This document shows, piece by piece, positions 56,249 through 61,187 of a DNA stretch of 64,000 nt. The position numbers and the translations under genes were made by a program. Position 1 is the stretch's first letter. The number at the start of each line of letters is the position of its first letter. Below the pieces are notes generated by a model, which saw only the letters and a list, made by a program, of their open reading frames with translations, made no database searches and had not been told where the DNA came from. This DNA is from Vicinamibacterales bacterium (GTDB lineage: Bacteria; Acidobacteriota; Vicinamibacteria; Vicinamibacterales; UBA8438), in the NCBI GenBank assembly GCA_963665465.1, contig OY762226.1:4741177-4805176 (forward strand), given 5' to 3'.

Positions 56249-56917
56249 ATGCGCCACCTCTTCTACCTGCACGGCTTCGCGTCGTCGCCGCGGTCCGGCA
56301 AGGCCCGCTACCTCGCAGGCCGACTGGCCGCGCGCGGCCTCACCCTGCACTGTCCCGACCTCAACGAGCCCGATTTCGCGCGGTTGACGACGACCCGGAT
56401 GCTGCGGCAGGTCGCCGATCGGCTGCGGCGGCTGCCGGAGGCCCCGGTTGTCCTGATCGGCTCGAGCCTGGGCGCGTTCGTGGCCCTGCACCTCGCGGAG
56501 CGGGCCGCCGCGGAGGCGCCGGCGCATCCGGTCGAGAAGCTCGTGCTGCTGGCGCCCGCCTTCGACTTCGGCAGGGCGGGCATGCCGGCGCTCGGGGCGG
56601 CGGGGCTCGCGCGCTGGCGGCAGGACGGCTGGCTGGAGATGCTGCACCATGCGTACGGCGAGCCGCGCCGGGTGCACTACGCGCTGTACGACGATGCGGG
56701 CCGCTACGATTCGTTCGCGGTCCGCACGACCGTGCCCACGCTCGTCTGCCACGGGCGGCGCGACGAGGTGGTCGACCCGGCGATGGTCCAGCGGTTCGCG
56801 GCCGGCAGGCCGCACGTGCGGCTGGTGATGCTCGACGACGACCATCAGCTCGGCGGCAGCCTCGAGCGCCTGTGGACGGAGACCGCGGCCTTTCTCGGGC
56901 TGGACGGCCGCTCATGA
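56249..56917 (+). CDS. YqiA/YcfP-like alpha/beta-hydrolase (esterase)
   Basis: Reads MRHLFYLHGFASSPRSGKA...VVLIGSSLGAF...CHGRRDEVV. Confidence 0.65.
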   Translation: MRHLFYLHGFASSPRSGKARYLAGRLAARGLTLHCPDLNEPDFARLTTTRMLRQVADRLRRLPEAPVVLIGSSLGAFVALHLAERAAAEAPAHPVEKLVLLAPAFDFGRAGMPALGAAGLARWRQDGWLEMLHHAYGEPRRVHYALYDDAGRYDSFAVRTTVPTLVCHGRRDEVVDPAMVQRFAAGRPHVRLVMLDDDHQLGGSLERLWTETAAFLGLDGRS

Positions 56918-57690
56918 GCTCCCCGTTCGTCTCCATCATCGTGCCGGTGCTGCACGACGGGCCGGAGCTCGCGCGCCTGCTCGACGCCCTGGCCGCCCAG
57001 CGCCTGGGCGGGAACGGGCGCGGCGACGCCCGCTGCGAGGTGATCGTCGTCAACGGCGACGGCGAGGATCCCGGCGTCGCGGCGCTGCGCCGGCGATCCA
57101 CGGGCGTGCGCTGGGTCACCAGCGAGCCGGGCCGCGGGCGCCAGATGAACGCGGGGGCGCGGATCGCGCGGGGCGACTGGCTGCTCTTCCTCCATGCCGA
57201 CACCTGTCCCGAGCCGGGCTGGCCGGCCGCGCTGGGACGCATCGCGCGCGATGCGGACGCCGTCGGCGGGGCGCTGCGGTTCACGTTGCGCTCCGCGGCG
57301 CGGCGGGCCCGGCTGCTGGAGCACGGCGTGGCGTGGCGGGTGCGCTGGCTGGGGCTGCCGTACGGCGATCAGGGGATCTTCGTGCGGCGCGACGTCTTCG
57401 AGCAGGTGGGCGGCTACCGCCCGCTGCCGCTCATGGAGGACGTCGATCTGGTCCGCCGCGTGGGGCGCCGGGGACGAATGGTCTATCCGCGCGCGCCGAT
57501 CCGCGTGTCGCCCCGCCGCTGGGAGCGCGACGGCTGGGTGCGCCGGACCGCGGGCAACCTGCTGATCCTCGCGCTCTATGCCCTCGGCATTGCGCCGGAG
57601 CGGCTGGCACGCGTTTACTACGGAGGCTCCGGCCGGCGTCCGGGCCGGGACGCCAGCCGTCCGGGAGCCGGCGTATCGTGCCCTGGCTGA
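56914..57690 (+). CDS. Family-2 glycosyltransferase, TIGR04283-like
   Basis: Real part of ORF 56872-57690. ATG 56914 overlaps the upstream stop (ATGA). Motifs: VSIIVPVLHD, GRGRQMNAGA, GDWLLFLHADT, LPYGDQGIFVRRDVFEQVGGYRPLPLMEDVDLVRR, SPRRWERDG. Confidence 0.7.
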   Translation: MSSPFVSIIVPVLHDGPELARLLDALAAQRLGGNGRGDARCEVIVVNGDGEDPGVAALRRRSTGVRWVTSEPGRGRQMNAGARIARGDWLLFLHADTCPEPGWPAALGRIARDADAVGGALRFTLRSAARRARLLEHGVAWRVRWLGLPYGDQGIFVRRDVFEQVGGYRPLPLMEDVDLVRRVGRRGRMVYPRAPIRVSPRRWERDGWVRRTAGNLLILALYALGIAPERLARVYYGGSGRRPGRDASRPGAGVSCPG

Positions 57691-59012: not shown

Positions 59013-59096
59013 GCGTTTGCGGCCGATCCCGACTATCCTGGCGGCCGTGAATGTCTGGCTGCGGGACGGTTGTCCCGCATGCCGCAAGGAGTCGAG

Positions 59097-61187
59097 ATGC
59101 ACAAGCCTGTGAAATATATCGAGAAGGGGCTGTCGTACGCAGCCGCCGGTGCCTGGGTGCTGTACGACGGGGTGAACAGGCTGTACCAGCGGCCGTCGTT
59201 CACGCCGTCCTGGTCGGACAAGCCGTTGCTCAAGTCGAACGAGAAGGTCAAGCCGCCCCTGGGATGGCCGCGCGAGACCGACTCGCTGTGCCCCAAGTGC
59301 GTGCGCGAGGCGCGGCAGGACATTCTCGACGGCAAGAAGGACTACAAGATCCTCCTGAACGAGAAGGTGGGGGAGATCAAGGCGCAGATCATCGAGCGGG
59401 ACGGCGAGATCGTGATGGTCAAGGAGTGTCCGATCCACGGGCGCTTCGAGGACGTCATGGCGATCGACACCGAATTCTTCCGCCACCTCGAGGAGTCGTT
59501 CCCCGGCAGCGACATCCGGGCGCACAACGACGAGAAGCTGCACGACCACGGCAGCAGCACCATCAAGTACGGGCGCGGGTCGGTGCTGACGATCGACCTG
59601 ACGAACCGCTGCAACATGATGTGCGACCCGTGCTTCATGGACGCGAACCAGGTCGGGTTCGTCCACGAGCTGTCGTGGGACGACATCAAGACGCTGCTCG
59701 ACAACGCGATCTCCATCAAGCCGAAGCGGCAGATGTCGGTGCAGTTCTCGGGCGGCGAGCCGACGATGTCGCCGTATTTTCTCGACGCCGTCCGCTACGC
59801 GCGGAAGGTGGGCTACAACAGCGTGCAGGCGGCCACCAACGGCATCGAGTTCGCCAAGAGCCTCGATTTCGCGAAGGCCGCCGCCGACGCCGGGCTGCGC
59901 TACGCCTACCTGCAGTTCGACGGCATCGGCAACGCGGCGAACTCGCACCGCCTGGTCGGCAACCTGTTCGACGTGAAGCTGCAGGCGATCGAGCACCTGC
60001 ACAAGGCGGGCGTGGACATCGTGCCAGTCATCACCATCCTCAACGGCATCAACAACGAGCAGGTCGGCCGCGTCGTGCAGTTCGCGCTCGACAACCCGAA
60101 GACCATCAGCTTCCTCTCGTTCCAGCCGGTCTCGTTCACCGGTCGCGACGAGGAGATCACCGACGAGCGGCGCAAGGCGCAACGCTACACGCTGTCGCAC
60201 CTGGCCCATGACGTCAAGGATCAGACCGGCATCGGCGAGCCGGCCCGCGACTGGTTCCCGATCTCCTTCATGGGCACGTTCACCGACTGGGCCGACCTGG
60301 TGCACGGCCCGCAGACCGACTGGGGCCAGCTCAACTGCGGCTGCCACCCGAACTGCGGCGTCGGCATGGCCGTGATGATCGACAAGGAGACGAAGGAAGC
60401 GGTGCCCTTCACCGCCTTCGTCAACGGCGAGCGGCTGGCCAAGGACATTGCGCGCGTCAACGACGCCGCGGGCGGCCGGTTTCGCTCCGTGCTCGGGATG
60501 GCGCTGGCGCTGATGCGCAACTACGACCCGTTCCGGGCGCCGACGCACTTCCGGCTGAGCGACCTGCTGCAGAAGTTCGACAAGACCTTCGGCGCGACCG
60601 GCAGGGAGTACGGCAGGGTATCCGGCGACCGGACGTCGGAGGACATCTCGAAGCGCCGCGCCGACCGCTGGAACTTCCTGTTCGTGGCCGGAATGTGGTT
60701 CCAGGACCTGTTCAACTACGACTTCCGGCGCACGGAGCGCTGCATCATCCCGTATGCGACGCAGGAGGGGGAGATCTCGTTCTGCGCCTACAACACGGGC
60801 ATCGGCTGGCGGAACATCATCGAGAAGATGCACATGACCGCCACGCTCACCAAGTGGTACGAGGAGCACGGGCGGCACGAGATCTTCGCCGGCGGCAAGC
60901 AGGTGGCGCTGGGCTCCACCGACCACAGCCTCGTCCTCGATCCGGCCGCGGTTGCCGCGGGCGCCCAGACCGATCTGGACGAGCAGGGGATTGCCAAGAA
61001 CGCGCGGCAGGAGAAGCTGGCCGCGCGGGCGGCGGCGAAGGGTGACGGCAACGGCGCCGATACCGCCTATCACCGGCAGATGGAGCAGCTCTACCGCCAG
61101 CACGTGTTGAAGGAAGAGGCGCCTCCGGTAGTCCAGATCCAGGGCCTGAAGAAGGTCCGGCAGGACGAGCCGGTCGGCGTGAGCTAG
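59097..61187 (+). CDS. Large radical SAM enzyme, Tes/GDGT-MAS-like (candidate membrane-spanning lipid synthase)
   Basis: ORF 59070-61187. ATG 59097 lies 6 nt after AAGGAG. The N-terminal Cys/His pair is SLCPKCV...VKECPIHG. The radical SAM motif is LTNRCNMMCDPCFMDAN, followed by FSGGEPT. Late Cys clusters are NCGCHPNCG and ISFCAYN. Confidence 0.65.
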   Translation: MHKPVKYIEKGLSYAAAGAWVLYDGVNRLYQRPSFTPSWSDKPLLKSNEKVKPPLGWPRETDSLCPKCVREARQDILDGKKDYKILLNEKVGEIKAQIIERDGEIVMVKECPIHGRFEDVMAIDTEFFRHLEESFPGSDIRAHNDEKLHDHGSSTIKYGRGSVLTIDLTNRCNMMCDPCFMDANQVGFVHELSWDDIKTLLDNAISIKPKRQMSVQFSGGEPTMSPYFLDAVRYARKVGYNSVQAATNGIEFAKSLDFAKAAADAGLRYAYLQFDGIGNAANSHRLVGNLFDVKLQAIEHLHKAGVDIVPVITILNGINNEQVGRVVQFALDNPKTISFLSFQPVSFTGRDEEITDERRKAQRYTLSHLAHDVKDQTGIGEPARDWFPISFMGTFTDWADLVHGPQTDWGQLNCGCHPNCGVGMAVMIDKETKEAVPFTAFVNGERLAKDIARVNDAAGGRFRSVLGMALALMRNYDPFRAPTHFRLSDLLQKFDKTFGATGREYGRVSGDRTSEDISKRRADRWNFLFVAGMWFQDLFNYDFRRTERCIIPYATQEGEISFCAYNTGIGWRNIIEKMHMTATLTKWYEEHGRHEIFAGGKQVALGSTDHSLVLDPAAVAAGAQTDLDEQGIAKNARQEKLAARAAAKGDGNGADTAYHRQMEQLYRQHVLKEEAPPVVQIQGLKKVRQDEPVGVS

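Follow-up and report, generated by a model that had tools for sequence, protein, structure and literature searches.

A loop-less Tes-like radical SAM enzyme beside an esterase and glycosyltransferase module in an acidobacterial genome

Archaeal Tes/GDGT-MAS (MJ0619; PDB 7TOL and 7TOM; model NF045702) carries a rubredoxin-like site with the pattern C9X2C12X20C33X2H36, and roles have been assigned to its gating-loop and active-site residues and to its labile Met439 and Tyr459 (PMC9433317). MA_1114, an archaeal paralogue, does not produce GDGT, and haloarchaeal Tes homologues are reported from strains in which GDGT was not found (PMC8941075). Bacterial and acidobacterial Tes homologues have already been proposed as brGDGT candidates (PMC8941075, PMC10087280; Zeng et al. 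2022; Chen et al. 2022; Halamka et al. 2022), as the preliminary description of the DNA studied here also held; none has been tied to lipids by experiment (PMC11868695). Zeng et al. filtered their homologues at 30% identity (PMC8941075). The discovery of brGDGT in S. usitatus was led by a closer Tes homologue (40% identity, E 1e-139), which is the one favoured in the literature, and an E. aggregans homologue is quoted at 32% identity (E 4e-61). Mss of Thermotoga maritima and Thermoanaerobacter ethanolicus is a radical SAM enzyme that joins fatty-acyl chains tail to tail by a C-C bond into diabolic or iso-diabolic acids (Sahonero-Canavesi et al. 2022), which is also the role proposed for the Tes-like enzyme studied here. 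These two species have Mss and no detectable Tes homologue, the acidobacterial genomes of the survey yielded no mss homologue, and acidobacteria may, according to these authors, use an alternative pathway (PMC13159169). Among glycosyltransferases, the described systems of interest here are MptA/MptB and the GT87 polyprenol-phosphate-mannose-dependent GT-C mannosyltransferases (PF26314, PF09594), and the mycofactocin glycosyltransferase MftF. The latter is a relative of the TIGR04283 family, whose "arsenosugar" name is a product of curation.

The window analysed is a 64-kb stretch of a Vicinamibacterales-type acidobacterial genome, in which four co-oriented ORFs lie on the + strand at 56249-61187. 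The genes, their orientation and their coordinates agree with the preliminary description, and direct reading of the sequence confirms the junctions that it gave. The features are as follows.

56249-56917, + strand: YqiA/UPF0227-like alpha/beta-hydrolase (esterase), 222 aa; Pfam PF05728, E 3.5e-23
56914-57690, + strand: family-2 glycosyltransferase (GT2), 258 aa; NCBIfam TIGR04283, 219 bits, cutoff 182
57678-59012, + strand: polytopic GT-C-type membrane glycosyltransferase of the MptA/B family, weakly GT87-like, 444 aa from GTG
59013-59096, no strand: 84-nt spacer with a Shine-Dalgarno-like AAGGAG (59086-59091) ahead of the ATG at 59097
59097-61187, + strand: Tes/GDGT-MAS-like radical SAM enzyme, 696 aa, by NF045702, 7TOL and fold
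59289-59438, + strand: rubredoxin-like mononuclear metal site, Cys65-X2-Cys68...Cys111-X2-His114; PF23545, E 4.6e-14
59430-59609, + strand: position of the missing [4Fe-4S]N, residues 112-171, no Cys; the loop is a 10-residue deletion in alignments
59610-59633, + strand: radical SAM motif Cys172-X3-Cys176-X2-Cys179 (CNMMCDPC); PF04055, E 7.9e-18; invariant in 81/81
60336-60785, + strand: C-terminal auxiliary-cluster region, Cys414/416/420 (CGCHPNC), Met533, Cys549, Tyr553 and Cys563
61211-61231, + strand: terminator-like GC-rich hairpin and T-run, 24 nt past the radical SAM stop codon

The GT2 start overlaps the esterase stop in the ATGA at 56914-56917, and the putative GTG chosen as the GT-C start overlaps the GT2 TGA (57688-57690) by 13 nt. 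The GT-C stop, TGA at 59010-59012, is followed by the spacer, in which a sequence scan found no terminator-like or sigma-70-like site and which gave no Rfam match; no element upstream of the Tes-like gene is conserved across the family. Four overlapping terminator-like matches were returned for 55900-61400 (mean of shuffles, 1.4), all of them the one hairpin after the last gene. Since no terminator-like site separates the GT-C and radical SAM genes, the two may be co-transcribed in this genome. Our preferred reading, which we consider somewhat probable, is nevertheless that the interval consists of two functionally separate units that are fortuitous neighbours in this lineage, and that the Tes-like unit most likely couples lipid tails.

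In sequence, metal-ligand pattern and predicted fold alike, the radical SAM protein is a genuine full-length homologue of archaeal Tes/GDGT-MAS. It matches 7TOL with an E value of 3.6e-62, is 30% identical to archaeal Tes/GDGT-MAS by BLASTP, and aligns to positions 2-483 of the 486 of NF045702. A Foldseek search with the AlphaFold model (pLDDT 82) returned 7TOM with a TM score of 0.86, the next match being at 0.51. The whole C-terminal lipid-binding domain is confidently modelled and superposes on 7TOM, and the protein, like GDGT-MAS, has no transmembrane segment. It is 696 aa long from the ATG, or 705 aa from an upstream TTG, and differs from GDGT-MAS by extensions of ~65 aa at the N-terminus and ~110 aa at the C-terminus. 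Its host is a bacterium with ester/ether fatty-acyl lipids, whereas that of archaeal Tes has isoprenoid archaeol. The protein is not a Tes equivalog, however: NF045702 gives it 309 bits where the cutoff is 450, and the N-terminal loop for an auxiliary [4Fe-4S] cluster is missing. The preliminary assignment as Tes/GDGT-MAS-like thus holds for homology, with the proviso that the protein belongs to a separate clade, fails the Tes cutoff and is without one of the four metallocofactor sites. An identity as peptide maturase or cofactor methylase was rejected on the full-length Tes match in sequence, ligands and fold.

All the motifs previously listed are present: CPKC (65-68), CPIHG (111-115), NRCNMMCDPC (Cys172/176/179), NCGCHPNCG (Cys414/416/420) and FCAYN (Cys563). 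Cys65, Cys68, Cys111 and His114, which match the rubredoxin-like pattern of GDGT-MAS, are invariant in 81/81 family sequences; their domain has a ~22-residue insertion relative to MJ0619-type proteins in the alignment. Equally invariant in the 81 sequences are the gating loop FQPVSFTGR (Q343/S346/R350) and all seven residues of the C-terminal auxiliary-cluster region. In the alignment to 7TOL and wider relatives, Met533 aligns with the labile Met439 and Tyr553 with Tyr459. The CX2C...CX2H site, CX3CX2C, FQPVSFTGR, the C-cluster cysteines, the labile Met and the Tyr are common to both proteins. In contrast, the loop equivalent to that holding the [4Fe-4S]N ligands C73, C77, C80 and a His in GDGT-MAS is deleted. 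Its absence is a trait of the whole clade, any Cys between Cys111 and Cys172 being found in only 2 of 82 family sequences. Degenerate clade members without the C-cluster cysteines were seen on a conjugative element.

This loop-less clade belongs to the same superfamily as the published bacterial Tes homologues, and the same brGDGT hypothesis applies to it, but it is distinct from the group that has the loop and scores above the Tes cutoff. The S. usitatus homologue of 40% identity probably belongs to the latter, judging from its identity and E value, and the statistics of the E. aggregans homologue are as expected for the clade of our protein; Ca. Solibacter usitatus is also the label of a contig that carries a clade copy (L066). 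Clade members are 75-95% identical across loci labelled as four acidobacterial lineages, namely Vicinamibacterales, Terriglobia/Acidobacteriaceae, Bryobacterales/Solibacter and Blastocatellia, with a cross-class identity of 75-88%. We take these labels to correspond to acidobacterial subdivisions 6, 1, 3 and 4, respectively. Subdivisions 6, 1, 3 and 4 are exactly those reported to make iso-diabolic acid without Mss (PMC13159169). Cultured non-producers fall in subdivisions 8, 10 and 23.

A protein with the Tes fold could instead act on a hydrophobic substrate by radical chemistry other than tail-to-tail lipid coupling, which we regard as possible though on the unlikely side. The score below the Tes equivalog cutoff, the lost metallocofactor and the extensions gained at both ends argue for such a change, but every residue of known importance in the active site and C-cluster of GDGT-MAS is invariant and the lipid-binding domain superposes on 7TOM in a confident model. 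The cross-class identity is unusually high for a lipid-tailoring enzyme, and the degenerate members on the conjugative element point the same way, as does the lack of association with GDGT for MA_1114, a characterised paralogue, and for the haloarchaeal homologues (PMC8941075). The alternative-pathway conclusion of Sahonero-Canavesi et al. would also fit, whereas the clade distribution matches the iso-diabolic-acid-producing subdivisions without Mss, and the "3 of 14 genomes" result rests on stringent criteria that are unspecified (PMC13159169). If these criteria resemble the filter of Zeng et al., the clade lies exactly on the line, at 30%.

The calls made earlier for the esterase and the GT2 are both supported by the profile matches listed above. 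The esterase, with a GSSLG nucleophile motif at residue 71, is the first gene of a three-gene module and is found again with the GT2 in Vicinamibacterales-type loci. The overlapping junctions are kept wherever the module is found. The GT2 covers the whole TIGR04283 model, also matches PF00535 (E 5.8e-15), reaches 51 bits against the MftF model (cutoff 280) and shows no hydrophobic or transmembrane segment by hydropathy. The third protein had been called GT87-like; it is a polytopic glycosyltransferase, but the match to PF09594 (GT87) is weak (22.3 bits, cutoff 25), and homologues 86-89% identical carry precomputed PF26314 MptA_B_family matches. Beyond these family-level HMM matches, it resembles MptA/MptB and GT87 enzymes in having at least eight hydrophobic segments and an acidic DDxxY motif (DDVYRY, residue 83) past the third. 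Its likeness to the characterised actinobacterial enzymes is very weak (MptB model, 19 bits, cutoff 40; GT87 below the gathering score), and its host is acidobacterial.

We doubt that an organoarsenical (arsenosugar-type) pathway is what the module represents, either as a remnant or as a variant. The GT2 does pass the cutoff of the "arsenosugar biosynthesis glycosyltransferase" family, yet we found no literature testing TIGR04283 function. In L002/L090, L089 and L003 the module adjoins a gene for a PqqD/radical SAM/SPASM protein with an ArsM-like methyltransferase fused to it, but the fused methyltransferase scores under every ArsM cutoff (231 vs 263, 201 vs 500, 162 vs 400), and the module is also present in genomes without the fusion. 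ArsM, ArsS and other arsenic genes were not found among the ~35 larger ORFs scanned in the window.

We surveyed 91 loci with a Tes-like gene; in 80 of them the upstream sequence extends for 3 kb or more. The esterase was near it in 11 loci, the GT2 in 9 and the GT-C in 5, all of them Vicinamibacterales-type with at least 77% radical SAM identity; the housekeeping genes MoaA (13/91) and HisS (8/91) are equally syntenic. In several Vicinamibacterales-type genomes the Tes-like gene keeps the strand of the module and a position downstream of it; in L089 it shares a strand with the GT-C and a radical SAM/methyltransferase fusion, all three closely spaced. The 84-nt spacing recurs only in L081, a 95%-identical relative; elsewhere it is 2.7 kb (L089), 3.8 kb (L002/L090 and L092) or ~9.6 kb (L091), with intervening genes for a radical SAM/ArsM-like fusion, an antisense DUF547 protein, MsrPQ-like proteins, DAO and a 2OG oxygenase, and IS elements. 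L082, L006 and L008 keep the Tes-like gene and lack the GT-C, and loci labelled Terriglobia, Bryobacterales or Blastocatellia have no GT or esterase neighbours of the Tes-like gene. Identity between the same pairs of genomes is 87-88% for the radical SAM protein and 50-65% for the GT module. The family searches, each scoring up to 8000 candidates, gave 891 GT-C proteins among the matches listed and at least 8000 radical SAM proteins, which suggests, as a rough guide, a narrower family for the GT-C. The radical SAM gene is thus stand-alone, strongly conserved and without conserved neighbours in its clade.

That the four genes form one membrane-lipid cluster, as first proposed, with a membrane-spanning core made by the Tes-like enzyme and head groups built or remodelled by the esterase and both glycosyltransferases, is improbable: co-orientation, overlapping or short junctions, the single terminator-like site past the radical SAM gene, and the arrangements in L081, L089 and other Vicinamibacterales-type genomes speak for it, but linkage is rare and no higher than for MoaA and HisS, spacing varies around unrelated, antisense or IS sequences, the GT-C has been lost in some relatives, evolutionary rates and, roughly, family breadth differ, and synteny with the GT genes is essentially nil outside Vicinamibacterales-type loci.

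In the preferred two-unit reading, the translationally coupled esterase, TIGR04283 GT2 and MptA/B-family GT-C (56249-59012) probably serve envelope glycosylation, and would most likely build or trim an envelope glycoconjugate. To go by family knowledge, the cytoplasmic GT2 would act at the inner face, and the GT-C would transfer sugar at the outer face from a polyprenyl-phosphate donor. For the stand-alone Tes-like enzyme (59097-61187), the analysis shows its homology and fold, the pattern of its ligands, its distribution and the absence of conserved partners, and we infer substrate, product and chemistry by homology to GDGT-MAS. With two [4Fe-4S] clusters and one mononuclear site, instead of three and one, the enzyme would cleave SAM at the CX3CX2C cluster and abstract H from a lipid tail at its terminal carbon. 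With Met533 off the C-terminal [4Fe-4S] cluster, a sulfide of this cluster would then hold the radical until it couples to a second tail radical, each C-C bond costing two SAM. Iso-C15 chains would be the likely substrates in Acidobacteria, and iso-diabolic-acid-type membrane-spanning lipids, the brGDGT precursors, the products. Proposals of a membrane-spanning-lipid role for acidobacterial Tes relatives go back to 2022 in the literature; the enzyme described here is a candidate for it, and most likely couples lipid tails into iso-diabolic-acid-type lipids.

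Four co-oriented genes, encoding an esterase, a GT2 glycosyltransferase, a GT-C glycosyltransferase and a 696-residue radical SAM protein, occupy the locus. The G+C content of the window is 72%, and the nearest relatives of its genes are on contigs labelled Vicinamibacterales or Vicinamibacteraceae, phylum Acidobacteriota. The co-orientation, gene junctions and sequence motifs reported in the preliminary description are all present.

Features of the four-gene locus and of its junctions.
56249-61187, + strand: four co-oriented ORFs, from the ORF read-out
56914-56917, + strand: ATGA junction between the esterase and GT2 genes, read from the sequence
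57678, + strand: GTG start of the GT-C gene, overlapping the GT2 stop TGA at 57688-57690, read from the sequence
59010-59012, + strand: stop of the GT-C gene, followed by an 84-nt gap and by the ATG of the radical SAM gene at 59097, which is preceded by AAGGAG, read from the sequence
61211-61231: sole terminator-like hairpin, 3' of the last gene (radical SAM)

The radical SAM protein aligns to positions 2-483 of the 486 in the Tes model NF045702 and scores 309.3 bits, below the equivalog cutoff of 450. It also contains a PF23545 zinc-ribbon (E 4.6e-14) and a Radical_SAM domain. Its only notable relative with a solved structure is GDGT-MAS, the Tes protein of M. jannaschii (MJ0619; PDB 7TOL/7TOM), with an E-value of 3.6e-62 and a BLASTP identity of 30%. 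An AlphaFold2 model was obtained with a mean pLDDT of 82 and a pTM of 0.83, in which the N-terminal helix (residues 3-29) is modelled confidently and a C-terminal extension of about 110 residues poorly. The model matches the four-domain fold of GDGT-MAS, including the C-terminal lipid-binding domain (Foldseek against 7TOM, E 1.5e-36, target-normalised TM 0.86, 555 columns). The second Foldseek match, MoaA, has a TM score of 0.51 and is restricted to the radical SAM core.

GDGT-MAS harbors a rubredoxin-like site (C9X2C12X20C33X2H36), a [4Fe-4S]N cluster bound by C73, C77, C80 and a histidine, the radical SAM CX3CX2C motif, and a [4Fe-4S]C cluster with a labile Met439 and an invariant Tyr459 (Lloyd et al., PMC9433317). 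The radical SAM protein contains 11 cysteines in all (positions 65, 68, 111, 172, 176, 179, 414, 416, 420, 549 and 563). The radical SAM motif is kept as Cys172, Cys176 and Cys179, and the rubredoxin-like CX2C...CX2H site as Cys65, Cys68, Cys111 and His114; both are invariant in the 81 family sequences, and the spacer of the latter site is about 22 residues longer in the alignment than that of MJ0619-type proteins. The gating loop FQPVSFTGR (Q343, S346, R350) is the same as the Gln268/Ser271/Arg275 loop of MJ0619 and is likewise invariant in 81 of 81 sequences. The predicted [4Fe-4S]C region is also kept: Cys420, Cys549 and Cys563 align to superfamily-conserved cysteines, Met533 to Met439 and Tyr553 to Tyr459 of GDGT-MAS, all five without exception in the family (81/81). 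In contrast, the [4Fe-4S]N loop is cleanly deleted, leaving a 10-residue gap and no cysteine between residues 112 and 171; any cysteine at all in this stretch was found in only 2 of 82 family sequences. The extra cysteines of the CGCHPNC motif were considered as a new site specific to this clade and rejected, since C-H-x-x-C is common also in the group that passes the Tes cutoff, with MJ0619 as the outlier.

When 1.84 billion representatives were searched exhaustively, 599 proteins matched at E <1e-30. The near-full-length relatives fall into two groups, on which the alignment and a neighbour-joining tree of 20 sequences agree. One group lacks the CPxxCGxCxxH loop and comprises the radical SAM protein and seven relatives, namely P0121 (63% identical), P0135, P0136, P0146, P0147, P0151 and P0181, with scores of 170-414 bits against the Tes model. 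The loop is present in MJ0619 and in all remaining relatives; five of these loop-containing proteins were scored (447-593 bits). The radical SAM protein thus counts as a homologue of Tes, yet lies outside the curated Tes equivalog family, and the loop-less group is a sister clade of Tes with, by prediction, one cofactor site fewer. The Tes/GDGT-MAS likeness first proposed for the protein thus stands at the level of the superfamily (7TOL, TM 0.86) but does not extend to Tes proper, given the score of 309 against 450 bits and the loss of [4Fe-4S]N.

A methanopterin dimethyltransferase role, the older annotation of MJ0619-type proteins that survives in some JGI names, was rejected on the work of Lloyd et al., who could not corroborate it and showed lipid coupling instead (PMC9433317). 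SPASM peptide maturase, MoaA and NirJ were dismissed, as their models cover the radical SAM core only, with 25-68 bits, and the structural comparison speaks further against MoaA, with TM scores of about 0.5 at most.

The Tes-like gene is widespread. More than 120 clusters built at 90% identity are 80-95% identical to the radical SAM protein, and at least 598 loci with a relative were found on one-genome-per-species contigs. The best 80 of these at least 598 loci show 75-88% identity and carry the labels Vicinamibacterales, Terriglobia/Acidobacteriaceae (including the isolate Acidipila rosea), Bryobacterales/Ca. Solibacter and Blastocatellia. Copies that are 78-82% identical also occur at three loci on MAG contigs labelled Betaproteobacteria, Bifidobacteriaceae and 'proteobacterium' (L013, L025, L031), which are most likely mis-binned or mislabelled acidobacterial contigs. 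Across loci labelled as different acidobacterial classes the Tes-like protein remains 75-88% identical with all 11 cysteines invariant, far above the conservation of its neighbours. Such conservation is higher than would be expected between archaeal Tes orthologues.

No conserved neighbour accompanies the gene: when all flanking ORFs were clustered, even the most frequent families (an MsrP/MsrQ-like pair, MutY, QueG, amidases and an SDR) were present at 12 of 81 loci at most. No conserved promoter or leader was detected 5' of the radical SAM gene in 55 loci beyond Shine-Dalgarno-like purine runs, and Rfam and tRNA scans of the region gave no match. Distant clade members likewise stand alone, and the context of P0121, P0135 and P0136 held no functional hint, only housekeeping or mobile-element genes. 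P0136 itself (loci L086-L088; 624 aa, 42% identical) is a loop-less clade member that has lost the C-terminal cluster cysteines too. Its gene, found on 16 contigs, is flanked by genes for a TrwC-type relaxase, a T4SS coupling protein and two integrases, and is therefore carried by a conjugative element. In 13 of 91 loci, which represent more than one class (L061, L078, L077, L026 and Vicinamibacterales-type loci), a MoaA-like radical SAM gene is located within a few kb of the Tes-like gene; in the Blastocatellia loci L061 and L078 it is directly upstream on the same strand. This proximity may reflect chance or general conservation of gene order.

The four genes had been proposed to form a membrane-lipid cluster. 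The three upstream proteins were searched for at 80 loci by tblastn and with profile HMMs, which detected the esterase at 6 loci, the GT2 at 3 and the GT-C at 1; with 10-kb flanks and GT-C-anchored loci added, the counts rose to 11, 9 and 5 of 91. All loci with any of the three genes are Vicinamibacterales-type, that is from a single taxonomic order, and the distance to the Tes-like gene varies. In the same 91 loci, MoaA (13) and HisS (8) are as syntenic as the module genes. The tight arrangement of the window is repeated only in L081, a locus from a 95%-identical relative, so the synteny with the glycosyltransferase genes that was to be looked for in other genomes is largely absent. At other loci, 2.7 to about 9.6 kb separate the module from the Tes-like gene downstream of it; the intervening genes are a PqqD/radical SAM/SPASM-ArsM-like fusion, antisense DUF547, MsrPQ-like, DAO or 2OG oxygenase genes or IS elements. 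The GT-C gene is missing at L082, L006 and L008. The radical SAM protein shares 87-88% identity between matched genomes, as against 50-65% for the module proteins of the same pairs. With at most 8000 candidates scored in each search, GT-C gave 891 matches (E up to 0.001) and the radical SAM protein at least 8000, a rough indication that the GT-C family is the narrower one. The adjacency seen in the window is taken to reflect order-level conservation of chromosome order, with nothing inserted between the two units in this genus. Co-transcription of the GT-C and radical SAM genes in the window genome is conceivable and, even if real, is by itself no proof of a common function. The proposed partnership with the glycosyltransferases and the esterase is not supported and should not steer pathway models.

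The three upstream genes form a real unit of their own, since their overlapping junctions are kept wherever all three occur (the window, L081, L090, L091 and L092). The esterase is a UPF0227/YqiA-like alpha/beta hydrolase (E 3.5e-23) with the nucleophile motif GSSLG. The GT2 protein matches TIGR04283 with 219 bits, above the cutoff of 182, over model positions 1-221 of 221. The GT-C protein has at least 8 hydrophobic segments, with DDVYRY at residue 83, past the third segment. It scores 22.3 bits against the GT87 model PF09594, for which the gathering cutoff is 25 and the L002 orthologue reaches 27.1, and PF26314 (MptA_B_family) is recorded for its close homologues. In the relatives L002 (1435-2901) and L090 (8542-10008), a 488-aa fusion protein combines the TIGR04283 GT2 with a second GT2 domain, which resembles DPM1/AglJ dolichyl- or polyprenyl-phosphate hexose transferases. 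The GT2-AglJ-like fusion agrees with the classical scheme in which a polyprenyl-phosphate-sugar synthase works together with a GT-C transferase. It suggests, as a putative function, that the lipid-linked sugar donor used by the GT-C enzyme is produced within the module itself. The arsenosugar name of TIGR04283 is unsupported, because no ArsM/ArsS or other arsenic gene was found among the window ORFs scanned and no literature on TIGR04283 function was found.

In several Vicinamibacterales-type relatives, the module is directly followed by a fusion protein of 840-883 aa that combines PqqD-like, radical SAM, SPASM and ArsM-like methyltransferase domains (L002 4265-6787; L090 11372-13894; L089 1737-4388; also L003). 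Its methyltransferase falls below all ArsM cutoffs, and the fusion is missing from the window. This domain combination looks unusual.

Other regions of the window hold further features. A patch at 48000-52100 has a low G+C of 0.62-0.65, compared with about 0.72 elsewhere. The patch probably represents a variable island, because the 95%-identical L081 has different genes at the corresponding place, including DruA and HNH genes. PADLOC gave no matches on this patch.

Features elsewhere in the window.
29325-31838: gene with planctomycete-type PSD/PSCyt domains, adjoining the ankyrin/cytochrome gene
33111-35117: 668-aa protein with many ankyrin repeats and a C-terminal c-type cytochrome domain
49938-50486, + strand: DUF3226 protein, in the low-GC patch
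50591-52063, - strand: 490-aa protein with an HSDR_N restriction-enzyme-like domain, in the low-GC patch
52030-52548, + strand: Uma2-family endonuclease-like ORF
52460-53205, - strand: toxin-antitoxin pair, with a FitA-like ribbon-helix-helix antitoxin and a PIN-domain toxin

The most likely predicted function of the radical SAM enzyme is the tail-to-tail coupling of iso-branched lipid chains. Tail coupling has been a hypothesis in print since 2022, to which the window contributes one more member. Zeng et al. (PMC8941075) listed 456 homologues of Tes in bacteria and proposed that they act in brGDGT synthesis, with identities of 40-42% for Koribacter and Solibacter and of 32% (E 4e-61) for E. 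aggregans. The idea was followed up in S. usitatus, which has two homologues, by Chen et al. and Halamka et al. (PMC10087280). In the literature consulted, which extends to 2026, bacterial Tes homologues are still called unconfirmed, and neither a knockout-lipidomics nor a heterologous-expression test of one is reported. Sahonero-Canavesi et al. (PMC13159169) found no mss, the gene for the bacterial membrane-spanning lipid synthase, in the acidobacterial genomes they surveyed; iso-diabolic acid (iso-DA) is made by subdivisions 1, 3, 4 and 6, and at stringent thresholds Tes homologues were present in only 3 of 14 producers. The window clade is 30% identical to MJ0619, which is exactly the identity filter of Zeng et al. 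(PMC8941075). If the stringent criteria resembled that filter, the threshold could explain the count of 3 in 14.

Loop-less proteins from loci labelled as subdivisions 1, 3, 4 and 6 share 75-95% identity; these subdivisions include the iso-DA producers, as opposed to the non-producers of subdivisions 8, 10 and 23. It is conceivable, if somewhat short of probable, that this clade represents the missing tail-coupling enzyme of aerobic Acidobacteria, under-counted by survey thresholds. As a stand-alone enzyme, it would form iso-diabolic acid, which would lead to the brGDGT core, and its cofactors would be two [4Fe-4S] clusters plus a single mononuclear site, as against three plus one. If so, surveys such as the one that scored 3 of 14 iso-DA producers as having Tes homologues would have under-counted the loop-less clade.

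As terrestrial proxies for palaeotemperature and pH, brGDGTs are among those in widest use, and to our knowledge the enzyme responsible for linking their two alkyl chains in acidobacterial producers is still not demonstrated. The radical SAM gene of the window belongs to the most plausible candidate family for this chain joining. The architectural split among acidobacterial Tes homologues and the problem of survey thresholds may be new points. These homologues comprise two architecturally different groups, the widespread one being without the N-terminal auxiliary cluster, and the position of this widespread group on the survey identity threshold may account for conflicting reports of its distribution.
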